Part shown: piece after piece, positions 9,977-43,864 of the stretch | Layout: each line of letters starts with the position of its first letter | Position numbering within the stretch: position 1 is the stretch's first letter | Assembly (NCBI GenBank): GCA_964291415.2 | Contig: OZ219920.1 | Location: forward strand, 960,001 to 1,024,000 | From: Alphaproteobacteria bacterium | GTDB taxonomy: Bacteria; Pseudomonadota; Alphaproteobacteria; SP197 | Reading direction: 5' to 3' | DNA: 64,000 bases | The notes under the pieces: generated by a model | Databases searched by the model: none | Seen by the model: only the letters and a program-made list of their open reading frames with translations | What the model was told of the DNA's origin: nothing | Translations under genes and position numbers: made by a program

Positions 9977-10041
9977 GGTGGTCGCTGCAAAGGTAACACC
10001 GACATTGGATGTGTCCAGCACGTGCGGGGAAGGGAAGGGCC

Positions 10042-10380
10042 ATGCCAGGATTGACGACCCACGTTCTCGATACCGCTTCGGGACGCCCGGCTGCCGGGGT
10101 TGCCGTCACACTCGTCGAGTTGGTCGGAAACGAGCGCCGGGACATCGCCTCTGCCGTCACCAACGACGACGGCCGCACCGACCGGCCGCTCATGGAGAGC
10201 GTGCGCCAGGGCCACTTCGAGATCGTCTTCGACATCGGCGCCTACTTCGCCTCGAGAGGGCCGGGTCCAGGATTCCTCGACCACGTGCCGGTCCGCTTCC
10301 GTATCACCGACACGTCGCGTCACTGGCACGTTCCCCTGCTGGCAAGCCCGTGGGGCTACACCACCTACCGCGGCAGCTGA
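10042..10380 (+). CDS. uraH: 5-hydroxyisourate hydrolase (transthyretin-like)
   Basis: LTTHVLDT, TNDDGR and C-terminal YRGS signature. Confidence 0.95.
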   Translation: MPGLTTHVLDTASGRPAAGVAVTLVELVGNERRDIASAVTNDDGRTDRPLMESVRQGHFEIVFDIGAYFASRGPGPGFLDHVPVRFRITDTSRHWHVPLLASPWGYTTYRGS

Positions 10381-10482
10381 ACCCATGTGAACGCCGTTGG
10401 CACAAGGGACCGGCGCCTTCCCGTCGTCGATGCCAGAGCCCCGCGCGTTCCGGGACCCAGTCCCCGGTAGCGCGCCTCAGCC

Positions 10483-10888
10483 CTATGGCGTCCTTCTTGC
10501 TCCGAAGGCGCCGATGTAGCCGGTGGTGTCGAAGACGCCCCAGGCCTCCTCGTGCGCCGGCCCGTGGAAGGCTCCGGAGAGGTGGTCGGTCCCGGCGACG
10601 CCCGCGGCGAAGCGGCCGCCGGCAAGCGGCATGCCGGTCCAGTCGCCGATGGTGTGGCCGGCCACGTCGATGCCGACATCGACCCGCGGCTGCGAGAGAT
10701 CGGCGATGGTCACCGTCGCCGTGCCCATGAGCCGCTCGAAGGTCCCCGTCGGGCTCGCCTCGGCGATGCCTCGCCACGTCGCGCTCCCCGTGCCGGCGGG
10801 GTTCGTGCCCGTGTCATCGGGCGGCGAGGGCCAGGGCCGCGGCCACCACGGCCGCGGTCATCACTGTCCTGGAGTTCATCGCAAGCAT
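10483..10888 (-). pseudogene. Internally deleted surface (lipo)protein gene: signal peptide fused out of frame to a TbpB-like C-terminal beta-barrel fragment
   Basis: MLAMNSRTVMTAAVVAAALALAAR* is followed in another frame by TGTNPAGTGSATWRGIAEA...LSGAFHGPAHEEAWGVFDTTGYIGAFGARR, resembling the transferrin-binding-protein-like small barrel. Confidence 0.55.
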
Positions 10889-12959
10889 CCCTCTTGTCAC
10901 GTTGGATCCGCGCCGGCTCAGAAGCGCAGACGCACGTCAAGCCTGAGCAGGTGCTCGGTCCCGGCGCCCTCGCGGCGCTCGCCCGCAAACTCGACATGCA
11001 GGCGCTCCGCCTCGAAGCGCGTCCCCAGCCGCAGCCGCCGGCTGTCGCCGCCGGCCACGCCGGTCTCCGCAAACGGCGTCAGCAACCCGTAGGGCGTCAC
11101 GCCCAGGCCGTAGCCGATGCGCGCGTCCAGCGCCATGGCGCCACCCGACGCCTCGCCCACCGTCGGCAGCTCGGCGCCCCACAGCGCCTCGGCGGCGCCC
11201 GTGCCGGCGCCCCAGTGCGGGCTCAGCATCAGCGACAGGCCGCGGCCCTGCGCCCCGGGACCGACACGCGCCGTCACGCTCACGCCGCGCTCCTCGGCGC
11301 CCTCCTCGGAGTGCGCCGCCAGCCAGCGGCCCCGCGCCTCCACATGGAACCGCGGCGCCGTGTAGCGCACGCCGCCCACGGTCTCCAGGCCGCTCCCGGC
11401 CAGACCGTCGCCGCCGTCGCGCCGCGCCGCCGCCTCGACGAAGGGCACCAGCGCCGTGTCGCCGTCCAGCGCAATGCGCCGCGACGCCTCCAGGCCCGTG
11501 CGCAGGCGCCAGCTGTCCGCCGTCAGGCCGTCCACATAGTCCGGGCCGTCGTCGGTCTCCAGGCGCGCCAGGCTGGCGTCCGCCCGCACCGCAAGGTCGA
11601 TGCCGGCCAGGGCCGGAAGCGCATGGCGCAGTCCCGCCGAGCCCATCCACATCACAAGGTCGCTGGTCTCGGCCTCGCCGCCCTCCAGGCGGTGCCGCGC
11701 CTCGCCGCGGCCGGCGCCCAGGACGCCGTGCAGTTCCAGGTCCTCCGACAGCGTCCACCGCCCGTAGGGGTAGAGCGCCGTCAGATCGGTCTCCAGGCGG
11801 CCCTCGCCGGAGCCCGCCGCGCCGTCGAAGCGGTAGTCCGCCTCGCCCGTGCCGTGGCTCACCGCCAGACCCGCCACCCACGGTCCCGACCGGGCGTCGA
11901 TGCCCAGCCAGCCCGTGCGCAGCTCGCCCTCGTAGCGCATCCCTTCCGGGCGCCCCGCGAAGGTCCCCAGATCGCCGCGGCCCCACACCGCCCACAGCGG
12001 TGCATCCGAACCCTCGGCCTCACCCAGCGTCAGCGAGAACGCGCTCGCCTGCATGAGCTCCCCGGCCTCGACGCTCCGGCTGCGCACCGGGGCGCAGACC
12101 TCGCCGGCGTCCGTCTGCCCGAGGCGGCCCGGGACGTCGGGCACACACCTCCGCCCCACATCCGCAGGAGCCGCCCCGGACACCCCGAACGGCACCGTCT
12201 CGCCGGCCAGCGTCAGACCGCTCGCCGGCACCGAGGCCGCAAACCGCGCCGCGATGTTGTCGAGCGCGCTCGACAGAGCCCGCCGCGCCACCGCCGCCAG
12301 CGTGCGCCGCACCGAGCGCTTCACCAGCGCCGTGCGGGCGTCCGCCACCGTCACCTGGAACGTCAGGATCGCCGCATCCGTGTCCGCCCGGTTGGCGTCC
12401 GCATCGTCCGCCCGCCAGGTGAAGACCCACTCTCCCTGCGACTCCGGCGTCCCCGACAGCCTCCGCGTCGCCGCGTCGATGTCGAGACCCGCCAGGCCCG
12501 CGGGATCCGAGGTCAGGGCGTAGCTCAGCGCGCCGTTGCCCCCCGTCGCCGCCGGCAGCACCGCAGGCTCCATCGCCTCGCCAACCGTCAGCACCAGGGA
12601 TGCCATCGGCGCCCCGAAGACCGGCGCCGTGTCGCGCACCGTCACCGTCACCTCGTCGCTGCCGGCCAGACCCCCCGGGTCCGTCACCGTCAGGCGGAAC
12701 ACCATCGCGCCCGACTCCGCCGGCGCCGTGAACGTCGCCCGCGCCGTGGCCGCCCCCGAGAGCGTCACCGACGCCCCCGAGACCTGGGTCCACGCGATGG
12801 CTCAGCGCGTCCCCGTCCGGGTCCGTGCTCCCCGAGCCGTCCAGCGTCACCGACGCTCCCGGATCCACCGCCACGTCCGCGCCCGCAGACGCCACCGGCG
12901 TGCCCTCCGCCGGCTCTTCCCCGGGCGAGCGCGGGGTGGAGGCCGGAGGCGTCTCCGTG

Positions 12960-14545
12960 ACGTTCATGACCGGATGGTCCGTGAAGCTCACCGCCGGGCT
13001 CCCCGTGCGGTCGGCACGCCGGATCGGGTTCGCGCCCCTGGTGTAGCTCACCGTGACTCGTCTCGCCCGCGGAGACCGCCGGGGCCAGGGTCAGCACCAC
13101 CGTGCTGCCGCTCACGTCGACGCCGGAGACGGAGAGCGCGTTGCCCGCCGCCGTCACCGTGAAGTCGGCCGGGGCAGGCTCGGAAGCCTCGTCCAGCGCC
13201 TCGTCGAAGGTCAGCGTCAGCACCCGGCCGTCCACCAAAGCGGACGCGAGCGCGGGCGTCTCCGTGACGTTGGTGACCGCCCGGTTCGTGAAGCTCTCGG
13301 CCGGCTCCCCCGTGCCGTCGGCGCGCTGGATCGGCTTCGTCGCGTCCGCGATGTAGCTCACCGTGACCGTCTCGCCCTCGTTCGCCGGCGCGGCCAGGGT
13401 CAGCACCACCGTGCTGCCGCTCACGTCGACGCCGGTGACGGAGAGCGCATTGCCCGCCGCCGTCACCGTGAAGTCCCCGGTCGCCGGCACGGAGCCCTGG
13501 TTCAGCGGCTCGCCGTAGTCCAGGGTCAGCATCGTACGGTCCACCCACGCCGACTGGAGCACGGGCAGCACTTCGGCCGGCGGCGGTCCGTAGGTCACAG
13601 CCATGGCCTCGATGTCCGCCGCCACGTTGCCCGCAAGGTCCTGGATCGGGTGGTCGCCAGCCACGCCCGTGAAGGCGTCGTAGTCCAGGGTCACGTTCTG
13701 ACCCTTCGTCACCGCCTGGCCCAGGGTCAGGGTCATCGTCCGGCCGGCCACGGTGACGGCGGTCACCGTCGCCGGGATGGAGGTGGCCCCCTCGGGGGAG
13801 TTGACCTCCATGTCGACCTGGAATCGGCTCGCCGCCGGCGTGCGGGACGGAGCCAGCGTCTCGTCGTAGGTCAGGGTCAGCACGTGCCCCTGCACGGTGG
13901 CGGCAAGCAGCCCCGGCGCCGTGGTGTCGGACGACGTGCGGTTGTCGGCCGCGACCCCGGAGAAGCCCGCCGCCTCGTAGCGGTTCGCGTCGGTGTCCCG
14001 GATCGGGTTCGCGCCCCTCGTGTAGCTCACCGTGACACTCTGGCCCGCGGTGACCGCGGGGGCCGCCAGGGTCAGCACGACCGCGCTGTGGGTCACCTCG
14101 ACGCCGGTCACCGACCGGCCGCTCCCCGCCACCGTCACCGCGAAGTCCCCGGTCGCCGGGACGGAGCCCTGGTCCAGAGCCTCGTCGTAGAGCAGCGTCA
14201 GCGTCGTCTGGTGCACCACGGCGCTCTTCAGCGTCGGCAACTTCACCGCGATGTTCGTGACCATCTGTCCCGTGAAGCTCTCCGCCGGATCCCCCGCGCC
14301 GCCGGCGCGCCGGATCGGGTTCGTGCCCTTCGTGTAGCTCACCGTGACCGCCTCGCCCTCGCCGACCGCCGAGGCCAGGGTCAGCGCGACCGTGCGGCCG
14401 CTCACGTCGACGCCGGTGACCGACACCGCGTCGCCCGCCGCCGTCACCGCGAAGTCCCCGGTCGCCGGCACGGAGTTCTCGTCCAGCGGCTCGCCGTAGG
14501 TCAGGGTCAGCGTCAGGACGTCCACCGAAGCGGTCGCGAGTACCG
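12960..14545 (-). repeat. About five tandem ~100-codon SwmB-like intragenic repeats
   Basis: Near-identical DNA blocks, e.g. 13083-13166 vs 13392-13475 (84 bp, two differences seen, 309 bp apart), with a third copy from about 14373. Confidence 0.8.
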
Positions 14546-34081: not shown

Positions 34082-35140
34082 TCAGGATGGGTGATCCCGA
34101 CACCTCCTGGTCAATGGACCGGGCCGGTCGCCTGGTTCGTTGTCGGCGATCCATGCCGCGTAGTCGGAAAGGCCCTGGCGGAGCGGTCTGGAGCGCCACC
34201 CGACATCAGAGATGATGCGCGTGACATCGTAGGCGCCCCAGGCGCCCGCCTTGCGAGCCGGAGAACCGACGACATCGGCGACGTCGCCGGGTGCGGCCTC
34301 GCGCCAGGTCGCCCCCGGCACAACCGAGCAGACCAGGCGGGCGAGTGCGTCCAGCGTGGTCGGCTCGCCGGAGGCGATGTTGTAGACGTCGTGGCGAAGG
34401 GCGGGTGCCGCAAGCAGATCACAGATCGCGCCGGCCACGTCGGCGGCGTGGATGAAATCGCCGACGCCTTCGGCGCCCGAGACGCTCCAGGGCACTCCGC
34501 GCAGGGCCTTGTGCACCATCACGTGGGGAGCGCAGGCATAGTCACGCCCGGGTGTCGGGCGATCCATCGGTCCGTAGACGCTGGCCAGGCGCACGATGTG
34601 AAGGGGCAATCCGAACATCTCCTGCCACCGCCTGGCCAGCAACTCGCCGGAGAGCTTGGTGATGGGATAGAGCGTGACAGGAAACGGGCGAACGTAGCCG
34701 TCCTCGGGAAGCGGTCCACCGTCCTCGGGTCCGTCGTCACCGTAAACGCTGCCGGTGGAGACATGGACCATGCGCTCGAGGTGGTCGAGGGTGCGCGCGA
34801 ATTCGAGGCAATGGACCGGGCCCATGATGTTGACGCCGGCGATCGTTGCCGCCCGGGATTGTTCTGATGCGCCGATCGTAGGCGTCATGGCTGCGCCGCA
34901 CACCACATGGGTCAACGACGCCTTCCCCGGTATCGTGCCGAGCAGGTGCGGGTCGCGAACGTCTCCGGTGACCACGACCAGCCGTTCCCGGACGGGCTCG
35001 AAGAAACGTTCCGCGAGGGAGTCGGGCGGCGCGATATCGACGGAAACGGCAGACGCCGAGGGATGACGTTCGAGCCAGGTCCGCACGACATGACTCATGA
35101 CGAATCCGGTGCCGCCGGTCACGAGGAGTCGCATCGTCAT
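34082..35140 (-). CDS. NAD-dependent epimerase/dehydratase (extended SDR)
   Basis: LLVTGGTGF, VSTGSVYG, YPITK (YxxxK) and VYGP motifs. Confidence 0.88.
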   Translation of the reverse strand: MTMRLLVTGGTGFVMSHVVRTWLERHPSASAVSVDIAPPDSLAERFFEPVRERLVVVTGDVRDPHLLGTIPGKASLTHVVCGAAMTPTIGASEQSRAATIAGVNIMGPVHCLEFARTLDHLERMVHVSTGSVYGDDGPEDGGPLPEDGYVRPFPVTLYPITKLSGELLARRWQEMFGLPLHIVRLASVYGPMDRPTPGRDYACAPHVMVHKALRGVPWSVSGAEGVGDFIHAADVAGAICDLLAAPALRHDVYNIASGEPTTLDALARLVCSVVPGATWREAAPGDVADVVGSPARKAGAWGAYDVTRIISDVGWRSRPLRQGLSDYAAWIADNEPGDRPGPLTRRCRDHPS

Positions 35141-35338
35141 GTCCCTTCAACGGGTTGGCCCGCACGAGTCCTGTCTTCGATGTATGTGCGTTCAGTTTCG
35201 CCGGCATCGACGCCGCGCAGCCGCGCATGATCAGCCGGCTTGTCTGCCGAATCGATCACCAACCCCCGGAGCCGGGGGAACCTGCCATGACCGCAGACAT
35301 CGTGCTGCCCTGTCTGTCGCGCCAGGAGACCGGAGAAC

Positions 35339-35860
35339 CTATGTCTCGGATTGCTCGTCGAACTGGAAGACATCCTCATCCTCCGGGTCGGGCTTGGCGG
35401 GAAGTTCGCGGCGGAACTCGGTCTGGCTGGTGAACTCGAGGCGGCTGGCGCCTGCCGGTCCGGTCTCTTCAAGGCGGGCCAGCAGCTTGCTGGCCAGTGA
35501 CTTCGCCCTCTCGCCGGCCTTCTGCAGCCGTGAGACCGTTGCCGTATCGTAGGGGAAGGCGAACACTCTGGGTTCCTGGCCGTCGGGCATCTCGAGCCAC
35601 AGGTAGATCGCCTTGTCTTCGTGAATGTCCCAGGCGATCACCGTGTGATAGGTGGTGAAGTCCTCCAGCCAGGCGCTGCTGGCGGGCTTGGGCCTGCCGA
35701 GCAGTTCGCTGACGGAGCCATAGCCTGCCGGCACGAGGAGGGCGAGGGCCACCAGCGCGGCGATCTTGCGGGGCAGGCGTCCGGCCGAGGAGACCGCCGC
35801 CCAGCCGGCAACGGCAGCCAGCATGAAACAGGCGACGAAGCTGATGGCGACGAGTGACAC
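35339..35860 (-). CDS. Hypothetical membrane protein (2 N-terminal TM + soluble domain), third gene of the MotA/ExbB module
   Basis: GTG start 3 bp after the upstream stop; two hydrophobic helices, then LLGRPKP, IYLWL and PRVFAFPY. Confidence 0.7.
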   Translation of the reverse strand: MSLVAISFVACFMLAAVAGWAAVSSAGRLPRKIAALVALALLVPAGYGSVSELLGRPKPASSAWLEDFTTYHTVIAWDIHEDKAIYLWLEMPDGQEPRVFAFPYDTATVSRLQKAGERAKSLASKLLARLEETGPAGASRLEFTSQTEFRRELPAKPDPEDEDVFQFDEQSET

Positions 35861-35863
35861 GGG

Positions 35864-36469
35864 TCACAGCCTCTGGCTGTCAAAGAGCGAGGTGTAGAGA
35901 TTGTTGACCGTGTGCGGCAACAGCCCTCCCGCCTCGTTCAGGTTGAATCGATAGACGGTTTCTTCCTGATCGACACGCACAAGGTCGACCTTGCCGAGGA
36001 GGATCTGGCGGGCGGGTTTGTCGATGTCGAGCTTGACGCTGATGATGACATAGACCGGCACCGGCCAGATCTCGGTGTCGTTGCGGTACATGTGGACATT
36101 GACGACGTATTCGCCGTGCGGAACACCCCGGGAATAGGCCATCTCGTGATTGGCTGCCGTGAGATCGTTGAGGTAGCCAAGATCGTCACGCAGGAGGTCG
36201 AAGATGGCGCCGCCGCGCTGCGACCAGCCTACGGCGCCATCGCCCGGAGCCCTGACCCAGAGGTCAACGTCGGCATCGATGCTCTCGGGCCACTTGATCT
36301 CGACGATCACGTTGCCCGGAGTCATCAGGTCCGATGTCTTCTTTTCCGGGGGATTGACGTGCGGCAACAGCAGGATCACCAGGGCGACGAACCCCAAGAG
36401 GGCAAGCAGGATGACGTCGCGAAAGACGGTTCCGGCGGGATCGTCGTCGAGCGGATCAAGAGCCTGCAC
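35864..36469 (-). CDS. ExbD/MotB-like single-TM protein with a periplasmic YfaP/DUF2135-like domain
   Basis: N-terminal TM with membrane-embedded Asp (VFRDVILLALLGFVALVILLLPHVNP), then WP...DVDLWVRAP...LLRDDLG...NHE...GEYVVNVHMY. GTG start overlaps the upstream gene end. Confidence 0.7.
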   Translation of the reverse strand: MQALDPLDDDPAGTVFRDVILLALLGFVALVILLLPHVNPPEKKTSDLMTPGNVIVEIKWPESIDADVDLWVRAPGDGAVGWSQRGGAIFDLLRDDLGYLNDLTAANHEMAYSRGVPHGEYVVNVHMYRNDTEIWPVPVYVIISVKLDIDKPARQILLGKVDLVRVDQEETVYRFNLNEAGGLLPHTVNNLYTSLFDSQRL

Positions 36470-37118
36470 GGCTTTCGCCCAGTTCCACGATGGTGTTGAT
36501 GAGCCGGACCGTCCCGGTGGTGAGCAACTGGTAGTTGGCCATGAGCCAGATGTTGAGAAGGCCACCCACGAGGGTCGTCACGAGTGCCGTGGACATGCCG
36601 GCAATGAGGGCCGAGACCATGGGAGCGATGTTTTCCGTCTCGCCGGCAAGATCGGGGTCGACGCCCGAAAGGGCGATGATGAAGCCGAGAACGGTGCCGA
36701 TGAGGCCCAGAAACACGAGACTCGAGGCGAGATGGCGGATGATGGTGATGTTCTGCGAGAGTTCGAGGCGCAGCGCCTGGGCCAGGGTCTGGCGGCTGTC
36801 GGCATTCTTGCCGGCCGTTCGTTTGACATGGGTGGCGGCACGGCTCCCCTGGTCAGGTTCCGCCTGTCTCGCCTGGTTGAGTTCGCGGCTCGTCCACACC
36901 ACCCGCTGCAGCGCGAGGGCAAGGCCGACCACGAACACCACCACGATGACGAAGACGAAGGATGTCGAATCGGCATCGATCGCCCGGCTGACAAGGCCGT
37001 TGGCCTCGCATGCCAGGAGCAGGGCGACGGCAACGATGTTGAGAAGCGCGAAGCGCAGTATCAGTCGAAAGGCGTGGGGGTCGGCCCGGGATTCCGCGGG
37101 TCGCGTGGCGGTGGTCAT
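36456..37118 (-). CDS. MotA/TolQ/ExbB proton-channel family protein
   Basis: Channel helices LVFLGLIGTVLGFIIAL and GMSTALVTTLVGG, plus two N-terminal TM segments. Confidence 0.88.
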   Translation of the reverse strand: MTTATRPAESRADPHAFRLILRFALLNIVAVALLLACEANGLVSRAIDADSTSFVFVIVVVFVVGLALALQRVVWTSRELNQARQAEPDQGSRAATHVKRTAGKNADSRQTLAQALRLELSQNITIIRHLASSLVFLGLIGTVLGFIIALSGVDPDLAGETENIAPMVSALIAGMSTALVTTLVGGLLNIWLMANYQLLTTGTVRLINTIVELGESRAGS

Positions 37119-37277
37119 GTCGAGTTCCGCGTGATCCGGAAGTGAGCGAATATAGCCGCGCTGGGCCTGTCCGCAAACGCAGCAACCGGTGAAGCCTGTC
37201 CGGGTCGCATGCGGAGTGTTTGCAAGTCACCCGCCTTGCGGGCCAGACTTCGGGTGGTGCCTGGCGGGGAATCCCTG

Positions 37278-38042
37278 ATGAGCGAAACTGTCACCGCTGC
37301 CGTGGTGGTCATCGGCAACGAGATACTGTCCGGACGCACCCGGGATGCCAACATCGCCTTCCTGGCAGAGAACCTCACCGCACTCGGTATCCGTCTGAAG
37401 GAGGTGAGGGTGGTCGGCGATGTGGAAGAAGAGATCGTCTCCGCCGTCAACGAATTGCGCCCCCGTCATACCTATGTGTTCACCACGGGCGGCATCGGTC
37501 CCACCCATGACGACATTACCGCCGACAGTATCGCGGCAGCATTCGGCGTCGGTATCAGCATTCACCCGGAGGTCCGCGATTCACTTGAGGCGTACGCCCG
37601 CAAACGCGGCATCGAGTCCAATGAGGCCCGCCTGCGCATGGCGCGCATCCCCGATGGCGCCAGTCTCATCGACAACGAGGTGAGCATGGCGCCGGGCTTC
37701 CAGATCGGCAATGTGTACGTGCTGGCCGGTGTGCCCGAGATCGCAAGGGCCATGTTCCGGGCGGCGAGTGCGGGATTGCGCGGAGGGCCCCGCATTCTGT
37801 CCCGCGCCATCAGGGTCCATTGCGGAGAGGGAACCATTGCCGGGGCTCTCGGCACACTCCAGCAGGAGTTTCCCGATGTCGACATGGGGAGTTACCCCTG
37901 GCGTGATGACGGCGTCTTCGGCACCAGCATCGTGCTCCGCTCAACCGATCGCGAACGCCTCGATACCGCCTTCGACCGTGTCTTCGATGCATCGGCACAG
38001 GCAGGGGGACGCCCTGTCGAGGAGGACGCGGCCAGCTGCTGA
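37278..38042 (+). CDS. Molybdopterin-binding / CinA N-terminal-like protein
   Basis: VIGNEILSGRTRDAN, TTGGIGPTHDDIT and LAGVP motifs. Confidence 0.9.
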   Translation: MSETVTAAVVVIGNEILSGRTRDANIAFLAENLTALGIRLKEVRVVGDVEEEIVSAVNELRPRHTYVFTTGGIGPTHDDITADSIAAAFGVGISIHPEVRDSLEAYARKRGIESNEARLRMARIPDGASLIDNEVSMAPGFQIGNVYVLAGVPEIARAMFRAASAGLRGGPRILSRAIRVHCGEGTIAGALGTLQQEFPDVDMGSYPWRDDGVFGTSIVLRSTDRERLDTAFDRVFDASAQAGGRPVEEDAASC

Positions 38043-41392: not shown

Positions 41393-43864
41393 CTAGAAGC
41401 GCATGTTGAATGTGAGGAAAAGGGTTCGACCCCAGCCGGCGGCTGTGGGTCCGTCGACATCGGAGGGATTGGCTGTGTCGACAGTCAGCCCGGCGTTGGT
41501 GAGATTGAAGATGCCGGCGGCAAGCCGCGCTCCTGCCAGCCCCAGGGGATCCTTCCAGTCGAGGACTGCGTCGTGGCCGGTCCAGGACTCGAACGTGCCC
41601 GTGCCCTCCGTATTCCTGAAACCGGCACGGTAGTTGACGGTCCACACCCCGGTCACGCTGCCGTAGCGTGCCATGAACCGGACTCGGGCCATGTTCCTGG
41701 AAATGGCGTACCGAATATCGTTGCCCGCTATGGAGAGGTCCGTGCCGATGACGTGCCGCCATGCGCCGCTCATCCCGATCTCACCCCAATCCATCGGGAA
41801 GGATGCACCGTACCGCGCCGTGATGCCGGAAATCTCGGTTTCCACGATGTTCGCGTAGCTGTCAAAAATCGTGATATCGCCACCAGTGCGGCTGATGCAG
41901 TTCGAGGCGGCGTTGCCCGTGCACTCGGGCAGATTCTGCATGGACCAGTCCGCAGTGTTCTGTCCCACCAGATCCGAGCGCGACAGCCGATACCACTCCA
42001 CGCCCACGGAGTACTGGTTCTTGCGAAGCTCGGCGCCGACGGAGACCCTCTCGGTCTGCGAGGGCTCAAGCTGCGGATTCCCGGTGGTGCTTCGGGTGAC
42101 CTGCCGGGGATTGGGGCTCGGACAGGCGCGCGGCGGGGCTCCACGTCCGGGATCGCACGTGATGTAGGGATGGTCCTGGTCCTCCGTGCTGTACAGCCGG
42201 GACATCGACGGCGCCCTTTGCCCCACGCGATAGGAACTTCGCAGTGTGAGCATCTCGTGCGGACGGTAGTCGGCCGCAAGGCCCCAGGACTTCAGTGTGC
42301 CGACATCGTCGTACTCGTCGCCCCGGCCGGCGACCCTCACGTCCAGTGTTTCGGCAAGGGGCACCAGCGCTTCGGCGAACACCCCGGCCGCATCGCGCTC
42401 TCCGGCATAGCTGACCCCGCCAGAACCGAGGACCCTGGTGACGTCATGGGCCTGGCCCGCGCTGTCCAGGAAGCGCAGCAACGAGTGAACTTTGACACGG
42501 GATGCCTCAAGACCGGCTGTCCAGGCCGTCTTGCGGTCGCCAGGAGCGACCGCGTGGCCTTCCAGCGCCAACCGGGTGCCCAGGTAGGTCGATCCGAAAT
42601 CTTCGTCCTCACGCAGGCTGCTGTTCGTGATGGCCTGCAGGTGCTCTGGCGCGTCCGAGAAGGGATTCTCGAGGTCATAGTTTCCGTCTTGTACTTCCCG
42701 CCTGATCCTGTCGGCGTGAACGAAGGTCGTGCCGGTGCGCGATCCGTCGAGCCGGTAGGCGTCAACGCGCGCGTCGTAGCCGAGGTCTTCGGAGAACCGA
42801 CCCTCGATGCCCACGGCGACGTCGAACTCGTCATAGTCAGACCGCCAGTCGCGGTTCCCGTGTCCGACAAATCGGTGGCCCACCGCGAAGATGTCGTTGG
42901 CGTCCGCAATCGTGGCGCCGGCCGCGCGGTTGATCGCGTCGATGATGTCCTGGGTTGGGACAAAGGAGAACGTGCCGACCGATGGCGCATACCGAAAGGA
43001 CCAGCCACCCTGACCGATGTTTGCCGTCAGGCGAAACGTGTTCTGTTCGCCTATCGGATGCTCAAGGTCGAGAATGGTCGTGTCCTGTTCAAACTCGGTC
43101 GTGTTCCACATGATGTCGCCGTATGCGAAGCCACAGCCCTTGTCTCCGTTCCGGATTCCCGGGGGATTGCCGAGCGGACCGGTGTAGCCGGCCGCGGGGT
43201 CGCACTCGCCCAGTGCAACCGATCGCACGCCCGTGATCTCGTTTGCTGCATCGCGTTGGAGAGTCCAGACCGTGTTGCCGCCGACACTGACATTGCGGGC
43301 ATCGCTGAAGGAACCACCCGGTGTCCAGGAGGAACGACTGTGCTCACGGGCCCGTGCCGGAATCTCCTGGCGCCTGAGGGCATCCACACCAATGGTGATG
43401 CGCCCCTTCCCGAACGGGCCACCCCAGAACGCGCTGCCCTGCCAGCCGTCGCCACCGTCCTGGCTCGGCATTCGCGTGAGTGCCCGGGTCTCGAAGCCGT
43501 CCAGGGAGTTGCGCAGGACGACGTTGATGGCGCCGCGCACGGCGTGTCCGCCGAGAGTGCCAAGACCGTCGCCGCTCAGGAGCTCGAGCCGTTCGATGGC
43601 CGAGAGTGGCAGGGTATCGAGGTCACTGGCGGTCGAGGCGTACGGCCTCCCGTTCACCAGCACCGGCAAGGGCTGGCCGCCGGTGAAGAAGTAGCGAACG
43701 ATGCCGGTATCCAGAAGTTCCTCAAGGGTCTGGGCGCCCGATCGCTCGAGGAAGTCCCGGTCGCGTTCCGAGACGACACGCACGTTGGGGGCAAGGGACC
43801 CCGCGTCTGCCATTGACGCTGCAAGAATGATGATGACGGGACACAGGCGAGAGAGAATTCTCAT
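41393..43864 (-). CDS. TonB-dependent outer-membrane receptor
   Basis: Signal peptide, plug motif VLVNGR...DLDTLPLSAIERLELL...GAINVV, GNPQLEP, GIFNLT and C-terminal aromatic (FNMRF). Confidence 0.9.
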   Translation of the reverse strand: MRILSRLCPVIIILAASMADAGSLAPNVRVVSERDRDFLERSGAQTLEELLDTGIVRYFFTGGQPLPVLVNGRPYASTASDLDTLPLSAIERLELLSGDGLGTLGGHAVRGAINVVLRNSLDGFETRALTRMPSQDGGDGWQGSAFWGGPFGKGRITIGVDALRRQEIPARAREHSRSSWTPGGSFSDARNVSVGGNTVWTLQRDAANEITGVRSVALGECDPAAGYTGPLGNPPGIRNGDKGCGFAYGDIMWNTTEFEQDTTILDLEHPIGEQNTFRLTANIGQGGWSFRYAPSVGTFSFVPTQDIIDAINRAAGATIADANDIFAVGHRFVGHGNRDWRSDYDEFDVAVGIEGRFSEDLGYDARVDAYRLDGSRTGTTFVHADRIRREVQDGNYDLENPFSDAPEHLQAITNSSLREDEDFGSTYLGTRLALEGHAVAPGDRKTAWTAGLEASRVKVHSLLRFLDSAGQAHDVTRVLGSGGVSYAGERDAAGVFAEALVPLAETLDVRVAGRGDEYDDVGTLKSWGLAADYRPHEMLTLRSSYRVGQRAPSMSRLYSTEDQDHPYITCDPGRGAPPRACPSPNPRQVTRSTTGNPQLEPSQTERVSVGAELRKNQYSVGVEWYRLSRSDLVGQNTADWSMQNLPECTGNAASNCISRTGGDITIFDSYANIVETEISGITARYGASFPMDWGEIGMSGAWRHVIGTDLSIAGNDIRYAISRNMARVRFMARYGSVTGVWTVNYRAGFRNTEGTGTFESWTGHDAVLDWKDPLGLAGARLAAGIFNLTNAGLTVDTANPSDVDGPTAAGWGRTLFLTFNMRF

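Follow-up and report, generated by a model that had tools for sequence, protein, structure and literature searches.

A conserved three-gene cassette of bacteria and tailed phages, probably encoding a MotA/ExbB-type motor with a DUF2135-like periplasmic head

Ion-driven motors of the 5:2 type power flagella, gliding, Ton-dependent uptake, the Tol-Pal system and Zorya defence, and every new motor output described so far has been informative on the conversion of membrane potential into work. The main text of a recent survey adds TolQ-like genes paired with vWA proteins which bear an aspartate-containing 'transpore helix' (Williams-Jones et al. 2025; PMC12204202). It thereby sets a precedent for heads other than that of ExbD on Asp-bearing helices with TolQ-like partners. 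The locus considered here lies in a window of 64,000 nucleotides from an alphaproteobacterial genome (GCA_964291415.2, contig OZ219920.1, positions 960,001 to 1,024,000). A first-pass annotation of the sequence had noted three tightly coupled genes, designated here A, B and C, and these are indeed found on the minus strand as set out in Table 1.

Table 1. Coordinates of the A-B-C cassette and its features within the window
Feature	Position	Strand	Description
Gene A	36456..37118	(-)	MotA/TolQ/ExbB-type channel subunit, 220 aa
Gene B	35864..36469	(-)	Axle-type subunit, 201 aa
Asp18 codon, gene B membrane helix	36416..36418	(-)	Position of the MotB/ExbD/TolR ion-binding Asp
A/B overlap, 14 nt, GTGCAGGCTCTTGA	36456..36469	(-)	Read directly from the sequence
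Gene C	35339..35860	(-)	Two-helix hairpin, OB-like barrel, C-terminal motif, 173 aa

The overlap of A and B suggests that the two genes are translationally coupled, and gene C starts with a GTG 3 nt past the stop of B. In the mechanical listing of open reading frames B begins at GTG 36565, giving 233 aa. Its true start is likely to be GTG 36469, overlapping the stop of A; relatives of B are 201-205 aa long and 97-100% of the 201-aa version is covered. The triad recurs in other genomes, as the first-pass annotation had anticipated. All three genes were detected at 68 of 75 bacterial loci; five further loci have A and B without C, two of these being interrupted by a contig end, and the two loci with B only are large DUF2135 proteins rather than B-type genes. 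Where all three genes are present (110 loci), the order A-B-C on a single strand is kept in 108, and the stop-to-stop distance from A to B has a median of 598.5 nt, approximately the length of B. This arrangement occurs far more often than chance would allow, and the three genes make up a self-contained unit that is conserved. Scanning 34900-37400 for promoters and terminators revealed nothing resembling a promoter and a single terminator-like site, which lies on the opposite strand and does not exceed the yield from shuffles. Short contigs from one RNA library, a sponge metatranscriptome, are 90-97% alike to pieces of C and of the B/C junction; they hint at expression of A-B-C, DNA carry-over being possible.

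Gene A is a minimal channel subunit of the MotA/ExbB family, in agreement with its initial assignment from the channel helices. It matches Pfam MotA_ExbB (PF01618) with an E-value of 3.4e-11 and 43.4 bits, against a gathering cut-off of 22.9, and carries LGLIGTVLGF and MSTALVTTLVGG. The protein has four hydrophobic helices and a cytoplasmic loop of only ~50 residues. Across 46 sequences of the family G138, G141 and G145 are invariant, whereas L137, L139, G174, T182 and G185 are each shared by at least 90%; conserved small and polar residues fall in the last two helices, where they would line the ion path. When the family profile was compared with the PDB, the best solved structure was MotA (8gqy, 9.8e-10), and ZorA (1e-5), TolQ (2.4e-5), PomA (3.5e-5) and ExbB (2e-3) were also recovered. 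ZorA models in PADLOC are matched weakly (1.2e-5) and in the channel part only; these models span 383-729 positions against the 220 aa of gene A, and the scores lie far below the cut-offs. Phage copies of A vary in their fit to PF01618. One (L070) scores 34.9 bits, two (L081, at 21.6 bits, and L088) fall below the cut-off, and no match was obtained for A of phage 16-3 or for the two divergent copies tested (L083, L098). In some phage copies the cytoplasmic loop is nearly gone.

Gene B consists of one membrane helix bearing Asp18 (in FRDVILL), a 14-residue linker and a beta-sandwich (residues about 53-180). Asp18 sits near the cytoplasmic end of the helix, as does its counterpart in ExbD, TolR and MotB. 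The first-pass annotation had placed it at the position of their essential Asp, and the residue is conserved: 119 of 128 rows have Asp, comprising 66 of the 71 from bacteria and 53 of the 57 from viruses, the other nine being eight gaps and one Gly, and it is at least 90% conserved in alignment A1. The positive-inside rule gives no support for an N-in orientation of B, whose N-terminal tail is acidic (0.69 K/R versus 2.7 D/E), and this orientation is assigned by homology instead. B is matched by no Pfam, NCBIfam or PADLOC model at E<=1. Thus B possesses neither the ExbD-type periplasmic domain (PF02472) nor the OmpA-like peptidoglycan-binding domain (PF00691), both absent in Pfam at this threshold; TolR and Pal from the same genome, serving as positive controls, matched ExbD at 1.1e-26 and PF00691 at 7.4e-19, respectively. 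B is therefore, as first proposed, no ordinary ExbD/TolR or MotB.

The head of B carries a DADVDLWV / LLRDDLG / NHE / GEYVVNVHMY pattern and an invariant acidic cluster; D67, D69, D95, D96, N107, E109 and N124 do not vary across 128 sequences. A likeness to YfaP, presumably the DUF2135 protein of E. coli, had been suspected from this pattern, and the head is in fact homologous to DUF2135-type domains. The B protein of the window lies below the Pfam threshold for DUF2135 (PF09906) and gives no match, whilst seven of 71 relatives match it weakly, with a best E-value of 0.0061. Alignment of B with P0300, which bears PF09906, by hhalign gives 97.3% and E 1.7e-11 over 108 columns. Furthermore, two large proteins recovered with the B profile match it through DUF2135 ends, and the Atlas model matched by the head is named DUF2135. 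Fold comparison assigns the head to the TerD-type beta-sandwich fold, and the title of the TerD entry 2kxt gives Ca2+-binding. Given this fold and its invariant acidic residues, the B heads probably bind Ca2+. Against the PDB the B profile found nothing significant, a phage penton base appearing at E 0.54. Its N-terminal 50 residues, which hold the membrane helix, reached a non-significant E=1 with chain F of 8qyd, which we take to be ZorB, the A chain of this entry being ZorA. A search for fused forms of B, in itself weak evidence, returned a single longer protein.

Gene C had been recorded as a two-TM protein of no known family, and this description stands: two hydrophobic helices are present and Pfam, NCBIfam and PADLOC give no family match. 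As modelled, C is a membrane protein whose helices form a hairpin, followed by a small beta-barrel that is OB-like (residues ~64-147). Its proline-rich tail carries a conserved C-terminal F..P.P.LP.K motif. The DUF4131 family (PF13567) is weakly matched by 16 of 44 C relatives, with a best E-value of 0.0076 and all far below the Pfam threshold; DUF4131 corresponds to the N-terminal region of ComEC, for which an OB fold with a proposed DNA-binding role is described. The C profile yielded only chance matches to membrane helices in the PDB, and a structure search with the whole model was filled by the helical hairpin and uninformative on the barrel. No likeness to TolA or TonB_C was found in Pfam and profile comparisons, and TonB_C is not among the 25 families listed, of 38 matched by the 44 C relatives.

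The cassette is present in both bacterial chromosomes and tailed-phage genomes. Amongst 401 sampled alphaproteobacterial genomes it occurs in 54, of which 11 are only 0.8-1.6 Mb, and it is also found in some other Pseudomonadota; Azospirillum brasilense has two copies, on megaplasmids. In the present genome it occupies a conserved housekeeping position and no prophage, the order cinA, A-B-C, sfsA-map being conserved in this lineage. Adjoining the triad are an NAD-dependent epimerase gene and a CinA-like gene, with no tonB, tolA, flagellar or Zorya effector gene adjacent, as noted at the outset; the term 'orphan' used in the first-pass annotation is apt insofar as no output partner is encoded nearby. 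At 22 bacterial and 59 viral loci no further gene is conserved throughout with the triad. The commonest real neighbours after it occur at 7 and 5 of the 22 bacterial loci, the larger bacterial neighbour clusters being opposite-strand reading frames over A and B, and the commonest further genes at viral loci are found in at most 10 of 59.

The first-pass annotation had mentioned similar triads in further alphaproteobacteria and in some large phages, and both statements are borne out. The cassette is carried by 59 IMG/VR contigs, some of which (L062-L064) are bacterial in appearance, and by 10 records of cultured rhizobiophages, among them the temperate phage 16-3 (p038/p040/p042); large carriers are phage contigs of 196-347 kb. 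The flanks of the eight viral loci checked, out of 59, hold portal, terminase, capsid, DNA polymerase, SbcCD-like, endolysin and baseplate genes. A tree of B calls for at least 3-4 transfers of the cassette between phages and bacteria, and for the A, B and C reading frames among 133 ORFs compared PHROGs gives no family at E<=1e-5. As the gene set is shared by bacterial chromosomes and numerous phage genomes, where it lies beside capsid or replication genes at the loci checked, certain viruses seem to bring along an ion-powered machine of their own.

A description of this kind of motor was not found in the literature searched. DUF2135 was not found in the full texts searched, no YfaP paper on motors was among the matches listed, and the combination of TerD or YfaP with MotA, ExbB or stator was likewise not found among the matches listed. 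Nothing relevant was met on phage-borne ExbB/TolQ, and papers on DUF3108 were uninformative by title. DUF2135, TerD and YfaP are absent from the main text of PMC12204202, where phage is mentioned for ZorAB only, and the two surveys of the MotA/ExbB motor family that were searched, that main text included, do not mention phage carriage of such a cassette.

The cassette is best explained, with moderate confidence, as a self-contained MotA/ExbB-type motor in which the head and the accessory protein are both new, serving an envelope or periplasm task on the periplasmic side of the inner membrane. By analogy with known members it is probably a motor of the 5:2 type, in which a pentamer of A would surround a dimer of B as in the solved structures. 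Ions would pass between Asp18 of B and the Thr/Gly faces of the last two helices of A, turning A relative to B. Because A is nearly devoid of a cytoplasmic domain and the linker of B has only ~14 residues, the motor would work on the periplasmic side of the inner membrane, neither on a cytoplasmic rotor nor by reaching to the outer membrane. The B heads would sit on top of the pentamer, probably with Ca2+ bound. The first-pass annotation had put C forward as a possible force transducer. The place of C and any contact with B are drawn by analogy too: the hairpin would most likely dock on the exterior of the pentamer, like the TonB and TolA helices, so that the OB-like domain is moved relative to the B heads and acts on a periplasmic or envelope ligand. 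The role is most likely a housekeeping-type task in the envelope or periplasm which phages also need in lytic growth.

On a bolder and less probable view, viruses encode MotA/ExbB-type motors of their own, the first such family: tailed phages, from 16-3 to the large carriers, would produce all three motor proteins in the host inner membrane and turn the host membrane potential into mechanical work on the periplasmic side in the course of infection. One possibility is that the ComEC-like OB domain handles DNA or envelope polymers, excluding rival phages or conditioning the envelope; the chromosomal copies would then represent this machine in cells. An envelope or periplasm task is preferred, on indirect grounds, to a dedicated immune system. 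The latter would be a membrane-level anti-phage or superinfection-exclusion device which senses or blocks periplasmic events, such as incoming phage DNA at the OB domain of C, and which phages carry against competitors. Exclusion is a frequent task of phage morons and early genes, and the movement of the cassette between phages and bacteria, the faint ZorA resemblance of the A channel in PADLOC and the PDB, and the weak DUF4131 matches of C relatives would all accord with it. However, the ZorA matches are confined to the channel of a protein without the long ZorA tail, and no nuclease or other effector gene accompanies the triad at the 22 bacterial and 59 viral loci. The conserved housekeeping position in this lineage, the retention of the cassette in very small genomes, and the location of phage copies in replication or structural modules, not beside repressor or immunity genes at the loci checked, further make such a device unlikely.

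Other readings fare worse. A regulated ion leak, in which A and B dissipate the membrane potential so as to time lysis or reprogram the infected cell with the B head and C as a gate, might be read from the phage context, from the minimal A without cytoplasmic output domain and with its loop nearly gone in some phage copies, and from an endolysin gene within ~3 kb in L072 and a lysozyme gene within ~4 kb in RHph_X2_25. It is distinctly improbable, as a toxic leak is hard to reconcile with stable chromosomal inheritance beside sfsA and map and with presence in 54 of 401 genomes; a gate would also hardly need two periplasmic domains of such size and high conservation, and no holin or spanin gene adjoins the triad at the loci checked. 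The genome itself invites the suggestion of a non-canonical Ton-like energiser, with C replacing TonB. It has only two MotA/ExbB genes, gene A and tolQ in the tol-pal operon, no TonB_C match anywhere, and a single TonB-dependent-receptor-like barrel gene at 41393-43864, 4.3 kb from the triad. Yet in a genome of the same genus (G210) the triad occurs with a single ExbD but without any receptor barrel, three further genomes with the triad possess 3-4 separate ExbD genes, no receptor gene belongs to the conserved neighbours at 22 bacterial loci, C resembles neither TonB_C nor TolA, and phage carriage suits such a role ill, all of which renders it very improbable. Least probable of all is a device handling Ca2+ or lanthanides for periplasmic PQQ-dependent dehydrogenases through the acidic head, whose fold is that of the Ca2+-binding TerD. 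Genes for these enzymes, some with cytochrome c domains, do lie within 5 kb at 7 of 22 bacterial loci. Their orientation to the triad varies between convergent and divergent, however, so that they do not form one operon with it, and since the genomes may be kin the seven do not amount to seven independent cases. Moreover, a PQQ-dehydrogenase is found neither among the annotated neighbours of the triad in the window nor among the top 14 clusters at viral loci.

The cassette is unusually small and self-contained, with a minimal A, a DUF2135/TerD-type head on B and a nameless family in C. It should thus be well suited as a minimal model for structure and mechanism, and would give DUF2135/YfaP-type domains their first functional context. 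Cultured carriers are at hand for direct tests in phage 16-3 with Sinorhizobium meliloti and in Azospirillum brasilense, both being genetically workable.

A number of parallels, and some marked differences, emerge on comparison with the described systems. In common with ExbB-ExbD and TolQ-TolR, A belongs to PF01618, the helix of B bears its Asp at the equivalent position, the genes adjoin and overlap, and a third membrane protein lies beside them, as do tonB and tolA. By contrast, B is without the periplasmic domain of ExbD/TolR, C presents a pair of helices and an OB-like barrel in place of the C-terminal domain of TonB/TolA, the four hydrophobic helices of A are accompanied by only a very short loop in the cytoplasm, the triad comes with no gene for an outer-membrane partner, and it also occurs in phages. 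MotAB and PomAB share with it the four-helix layout of A, whose best PDB match is MotA, and the Asp-bearing helix of B; they differ in the torque-generating cytoplasmic domain and the OmpA-type domain, which A and B respectively lack, and flagellar genes are not found near the triad. The channel part of A is distantly similar to that of ZorAB of Zorya, but the long C-terminal tail of ZorA is missing, B bears another head, and no ZorC/D/E-type effector gene was seen near the triad in the window or at 22 bacterial loci. Outside the motors, the N-terminal part of ComEC (DUF4131) may resemble C, both having membrane helices and, after these, a small extramembrane beta-barrel, whereas the competence channel and the nuclease domain are absent from C and the DUF4131 matches are sub-threshold.

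The vWA systems, as presented in the main text of PMC12204202, come close in plan, as they too combine a TolQ/MotA-type gene without exbD or tolR with a partner whose Asp helix is fused to an unrelated periplasmic domain. In the present cassette the head is instead DUF2135/TerD-like, a single B gene takes the place of heterologous pairs, and a third gene is conserved. Finally, whilst DUF2135 proteins such as YfaP and the VIT/vWA-DUF2135 proteins are soluble or multidomain secreted proteins, B is tethered to a motor helix, and its family is set apart from DUF2135, YfaP and TerD by invariant LLRDDLG and N.E motifs of its own.

The three linked genes constitute a variant of the MotA/ExbB-type ion motor in which the head is of the DUF2135/TerD type and the partner is an OB-like protein of no named family, and this cassette is widespread and mobile between phages and bacteria. 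Gene A encodes the channel subunit, gene B a partner with an aspartate in its membrane helix and gene C a two-helix partner. All the coordinates and motifs claimed in the first-pass annotation are present in the window sequence, and the genes follow one another on the minus strand with no real gaps. A mechanical ORF list places the start of B further upstream, at 36565; since relatives of B are 201-205 aa long and match 97-100% of the 201-aa version, the start in the table is the likely one.

Features of the window discussed in the text (positions in nucleotides)
Feature	Position	Strand	Remarks
Gene A	36456-37118	minus	220 aa; TGA stop inside GTGCAGGCTCTTGA
Gene B	35864-36469	minus	201 aa; likely start GTG 36469, within GTGCAGGCTCTTGA
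Gene C	35339-35860	minus	173 aa; GTG start three bases past the B stop
NAD-dependent epimerase gene	34082-35140		between C and sfsA
TonB-dependent-receptor-type barrel	41393-43864	minus	PF00593 match at 2.4e-23, Plug match at only 0.0019; 4.3 kb away from A-B-C
Sponge metatranscriptome contigs	35335-35535 and 35749-35995		over C and spanning the B/C junction
G+C-rich stretch	10001-14000		G+C 0.74 versus about 0.64 elsewhere; negative GC skew

Gene A belongs to the MotA_ExbB family of Pfam, scoring 43.4 bits against a curated cut-off of 22.9. A profile built from 46 relatives picks up the pentamer-forming chain of every solved motor of the MotA/TolQ/ExbB kind: MotA (8gqy, E 9.8e-10), an unnamed protein with a MotA/TolQ/ExbB domain (8vvn, 2.7e-7), ZorA (1e-5), TolQ (2.4e-5), PomA (3.5e-5) and ExbB (2e-3). 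Four hydrophobic helices in a MotA-like layout are predicted from the sequence, and among the 46 relatives the conserved columns sit in the last two, with G138, G141 and G145 invariant and T182 kept in at least 90% of rows. On the same reading only about 50 residues separate the second and third helices, and this stretch is nearly absent in some phage copies, so that A would lack a cytoplasmic domain able to push a rotor.

Gene B has no match in Pfam, NCBIfam or PADLOC at E<=1, while two controls from the same genome score strongly (TolR as ExbD at 1.1e-26, Pal as OmpA at 7.4e-19). Thus B is neither an ExbD/TolR nor a MotB-type protein, as the first-pass annotation had claimed. Its family is large, with 2592 relatives in a word-indexed search and 1487 clusters at 50% identity in an exhaustive one; among the word-search matches listed, every named protein is 'hypothetical' and none has a Pfam domain. 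The aspartate noticed earlier in the membrane helix, Asp18, is kept in at least 90% of 71 diverse members. In a second set of 128 rows (from 135 hits, seven covering fewer than 150 profile positions having been dropped) it is Asp in 66/71 bacterial and 53/57 viral sequences, the rest being eight gaps and one Gly, and every one of the 128 rows keeps W60, D67, D69, R94, D95, D96, G98 and E109. The AlphaFold2 model of B (pLDDT 92.2) has a long helix (residues 11-38), a 14-residue linker and an eight-stranded sandwich. The proposed likeness of this head to YfaP/DUF2135 is real homology: seven of the 71 members match PF09906 weakly, the B profile recovers two large proteins in which Pfam assigns the matched ends to DUF2135, and the protein Atlas also points towards DUF2135. 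The only longer relative found, a 994-aa TPR/VIT/DUF2135 protein, aligns with the B alignment in hhalign at 97.3% (E 1.7e-11, 108 columns); the LLRDDLG and N.E motifs are the B family's own and absent from it. By analogy with TerD, the invariant acidic cluster of B may bind Ca2+.

Gene C diverges fast, a word search returning only 26 relatives, and was recovered beside B in distant bacteria and phages by transitive clustering and a profile. Conserved features are two membrane helices, L-G-x-P-x-P directly past the second, then A-I-Y-L-W, P-R-x-Y-x-L-P-W, a helix and a terminal F...P.P.LP.K motif. The loop joining the two helices contains many Lys/Arg residues (mean 2.6, versus 0.25 Asp/Glu, in 44 rows), so by the positive-inside rule the domain should be periplasmic. 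DUF4131, the N-terminal part of ComEC, is matched by 16 of the 44 relatives (best E 0.0076), and 'OB-like, ComEC-N-like' is a lead rather than a membership. One bacterial locus carries two tandem C copies after B (L058:5534-6124 and L058:6137-6763).

A, B and C form one unit. Scored with profiles built in this analysis, all three are present in 68 of 75 bacterial loci; five have just A and B, a contig end truncating two of these, and the two 'B only' cases are the large DUF2135 proteins. Where all three occur, in bacteria or viruses, they lie in the order A-B-C on one strand in 108/110 loci, the exceptions being one A-C-B (the bacterial locus L034) and one C-A-B, and the stop-to-stop distances, with medians of 598.5 and 535.5 nt, roughly equal the length of the gene that follows. 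The expected co-occurrence is borne out. No further gene family is common to all triad loci among 22 diverse bacterial and 59 viral ones: the commonest other real neighbours in the former are PQQ-dependent dehydrogenases (seven) and DUF3108-like genes (five), and the next clusters in the latter reach at most 10/59. The dehydrogenases, some of which include a cytochrome c domain or have a cytochrome c gene alongside, are found within 5 kb of A-B-C, in varying orientation, at L044, L045, L046, L050, L051, L052 and L057, all bacterial and belonging to the long-stemmed clade of B described below. A DUF3108-like gene directly follows C at L043, L047, L048, L049 and L056, with a 4-nt overlap in L047 and L056; L047 and L048 have several such frames, with three apiece in the cluster, and in L047 these overlap one another. 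In this clade the gene may be a fourth component. A trypsin-like protease lies just upstream of A in a cluster of 7/59 viral loci (Pfam-confirmed at L072:3969-4676 and L102:4379-5002) and in the cultured rhizobiophages 16-3 (L121, p036) and RHph_X2_25 (L122).

The similar triads mentioned earlier for other alphaproteobacteria and for phages do exist. Single-protein searches found B in 54 of 401 sampled alphaproteobacterial genomes (45 of 336 good-quality ones), including 11 genomes of 0.8-1.6 Mb; a profile search of a phylum-wide sample gave 15/401, two being DUF2135 proteins and seven lying outside the class. Among plasmids (PLSDB) it occurs in 7/72,556, all Azospirillum megaplasmids with two places each. 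These replicons (e.g. NZ_CP012915.1) measure 1.75-2.05 Mb, the best place has 54.5-55.4% identity, and the PLSDB gene table lists no gene there. Viral contigs in IMG/VR yielded 59 loci, 40-41 with complete A-B-C by profiles; clustering placed B in all 59 loci, C in 52 of them and A in 51, with seven divergent copies of A in addition. Three (L062-L064) closely resemble bacterial copies and may be host DNA. The flanks of eight of the 59 (133 ORFs) were checked against PHROGs, in which the A, B and C frames had no family at E<=1e-5. In L070 the triad separates small terminase and portal genes from those for scaffold, major head protein and head-tail adaptors; in L081 it separates DNA polymerase, resolvase and exonuclease genes from SbcCD-like genes and thymidylate synthase. 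L072 has genes for an endolysin and a DNA transfer protein close by, and L104 has primase and methyltransferase genes. L112 and L120 (256- and 196-kb contigs) match baseplate-hub and head proteins, and L065 and L088 (the latter from a 347 kb contig) have fewer phage-typical matches, none structural. GenBank phage records gave 10/50,697, all rhizobiophages: 16-3 (two records), AP-16-3, NV1.1.1 and six RHph phages. In 16-3 the profiles identify p038 as A-like (3.6e-11), p040 as B (5.6e-53) and p042 as C (4e-9), with two small ORFs interspersed, a trypsin-like protease upstream and an exonuclease downstream.

A FastTree of B (101 sequences, rows more than 92% alike removed) divides in two. One clade, on a long stem, is almost purely bacterial (26 bacterial rows, one viral); the other mixes 46 viral with 28 bacterial rows and includes the window's protein. 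The viral/bacterial label changes at least eight times, four of them forced by well-supported branches (33.6 in shuffles); on an IQ-TREE of 85 rows (80% cut, long-branched L124 left out) it needs six changes, three forced. The cassette has thus passed between phages and cells several times, on trees that fix neither root nor direction of transfer. Within the window's own lineage the locus is stable. Among 22 related loci (L001-L020, L023, L024) cinA lies on one side in 19, and sfsA and map on the other in 20 each, all three being present in 17; L004 (cut by a contig end) and L008 have neither sfsA nor map, and L009 and L012 have no cinA. The epimerase gene looks like a recent insertion, as it is confined to the nearest relatives and sfsA directly follows C in more distant kin. 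No prophage context was seen at the window's locus. The metatranscriptome contigs are short and 90-97% alike; a DNA-type run contains 95% of the sampled words.

The analysis establishes the family of A, the Asp helix of B, the folds, joint inheritance and carriage by phages; the original observation is confirmed and its interpretation as an ion-driven motor is supported. As in the solved motors, an A5B2 assembly would form, ion flow via Asp18 turning A around B. Given the short linker of B and an A subunit without such a cytoplasmic domain, output would be at the periplasmic face of the inner membrane. The C hairpin probably sits on the outside of the pentamer, where the TonB and TolA helices bind according to cryo-EM work cited in PMC12204202, and its barrel and tail would be moved relative to the B heads, acting on a ligand.

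A general envelope or periplasm task ranks first, because very small genomes keep the cassette, its position in the window's lineage is a housekeeping one and the phage copies checked lie among replication and structural genes. The main rival is a role in exclusion or defence, against which the phage copies checked are not among immunity genes. A Ton-like role was worth testing, since the window's genome (G000) has only two MotA/ExbB genes, A and tolQ, no TonB_C match and a single TonB-dependent-receptor-type barrel, near the triad; the tolQ operon reads ybgC-tolQ-tolR-(tolA)-tolB-pal-cpoB, its TolR being the genome's only ExbD. However, a same-genus genome has the triad without the barrel, and three of five other triad genomes also carry 3-4 ExbD genes, so this role is rated low.

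In their main texts, PMC12204202 and PMC12505986, the latter a MotAB survey, refer to phage solely in the context of Zorya, and DUF2135, TerD, YfaP, OB-fold and DUF4131 are absent, whilst the supplements may list more families. The sole close published precedent found for the motor proposed here is the pairing, described in PMC12204202, of TolQ-like genes with vWA proteins bearing an Asp helix.
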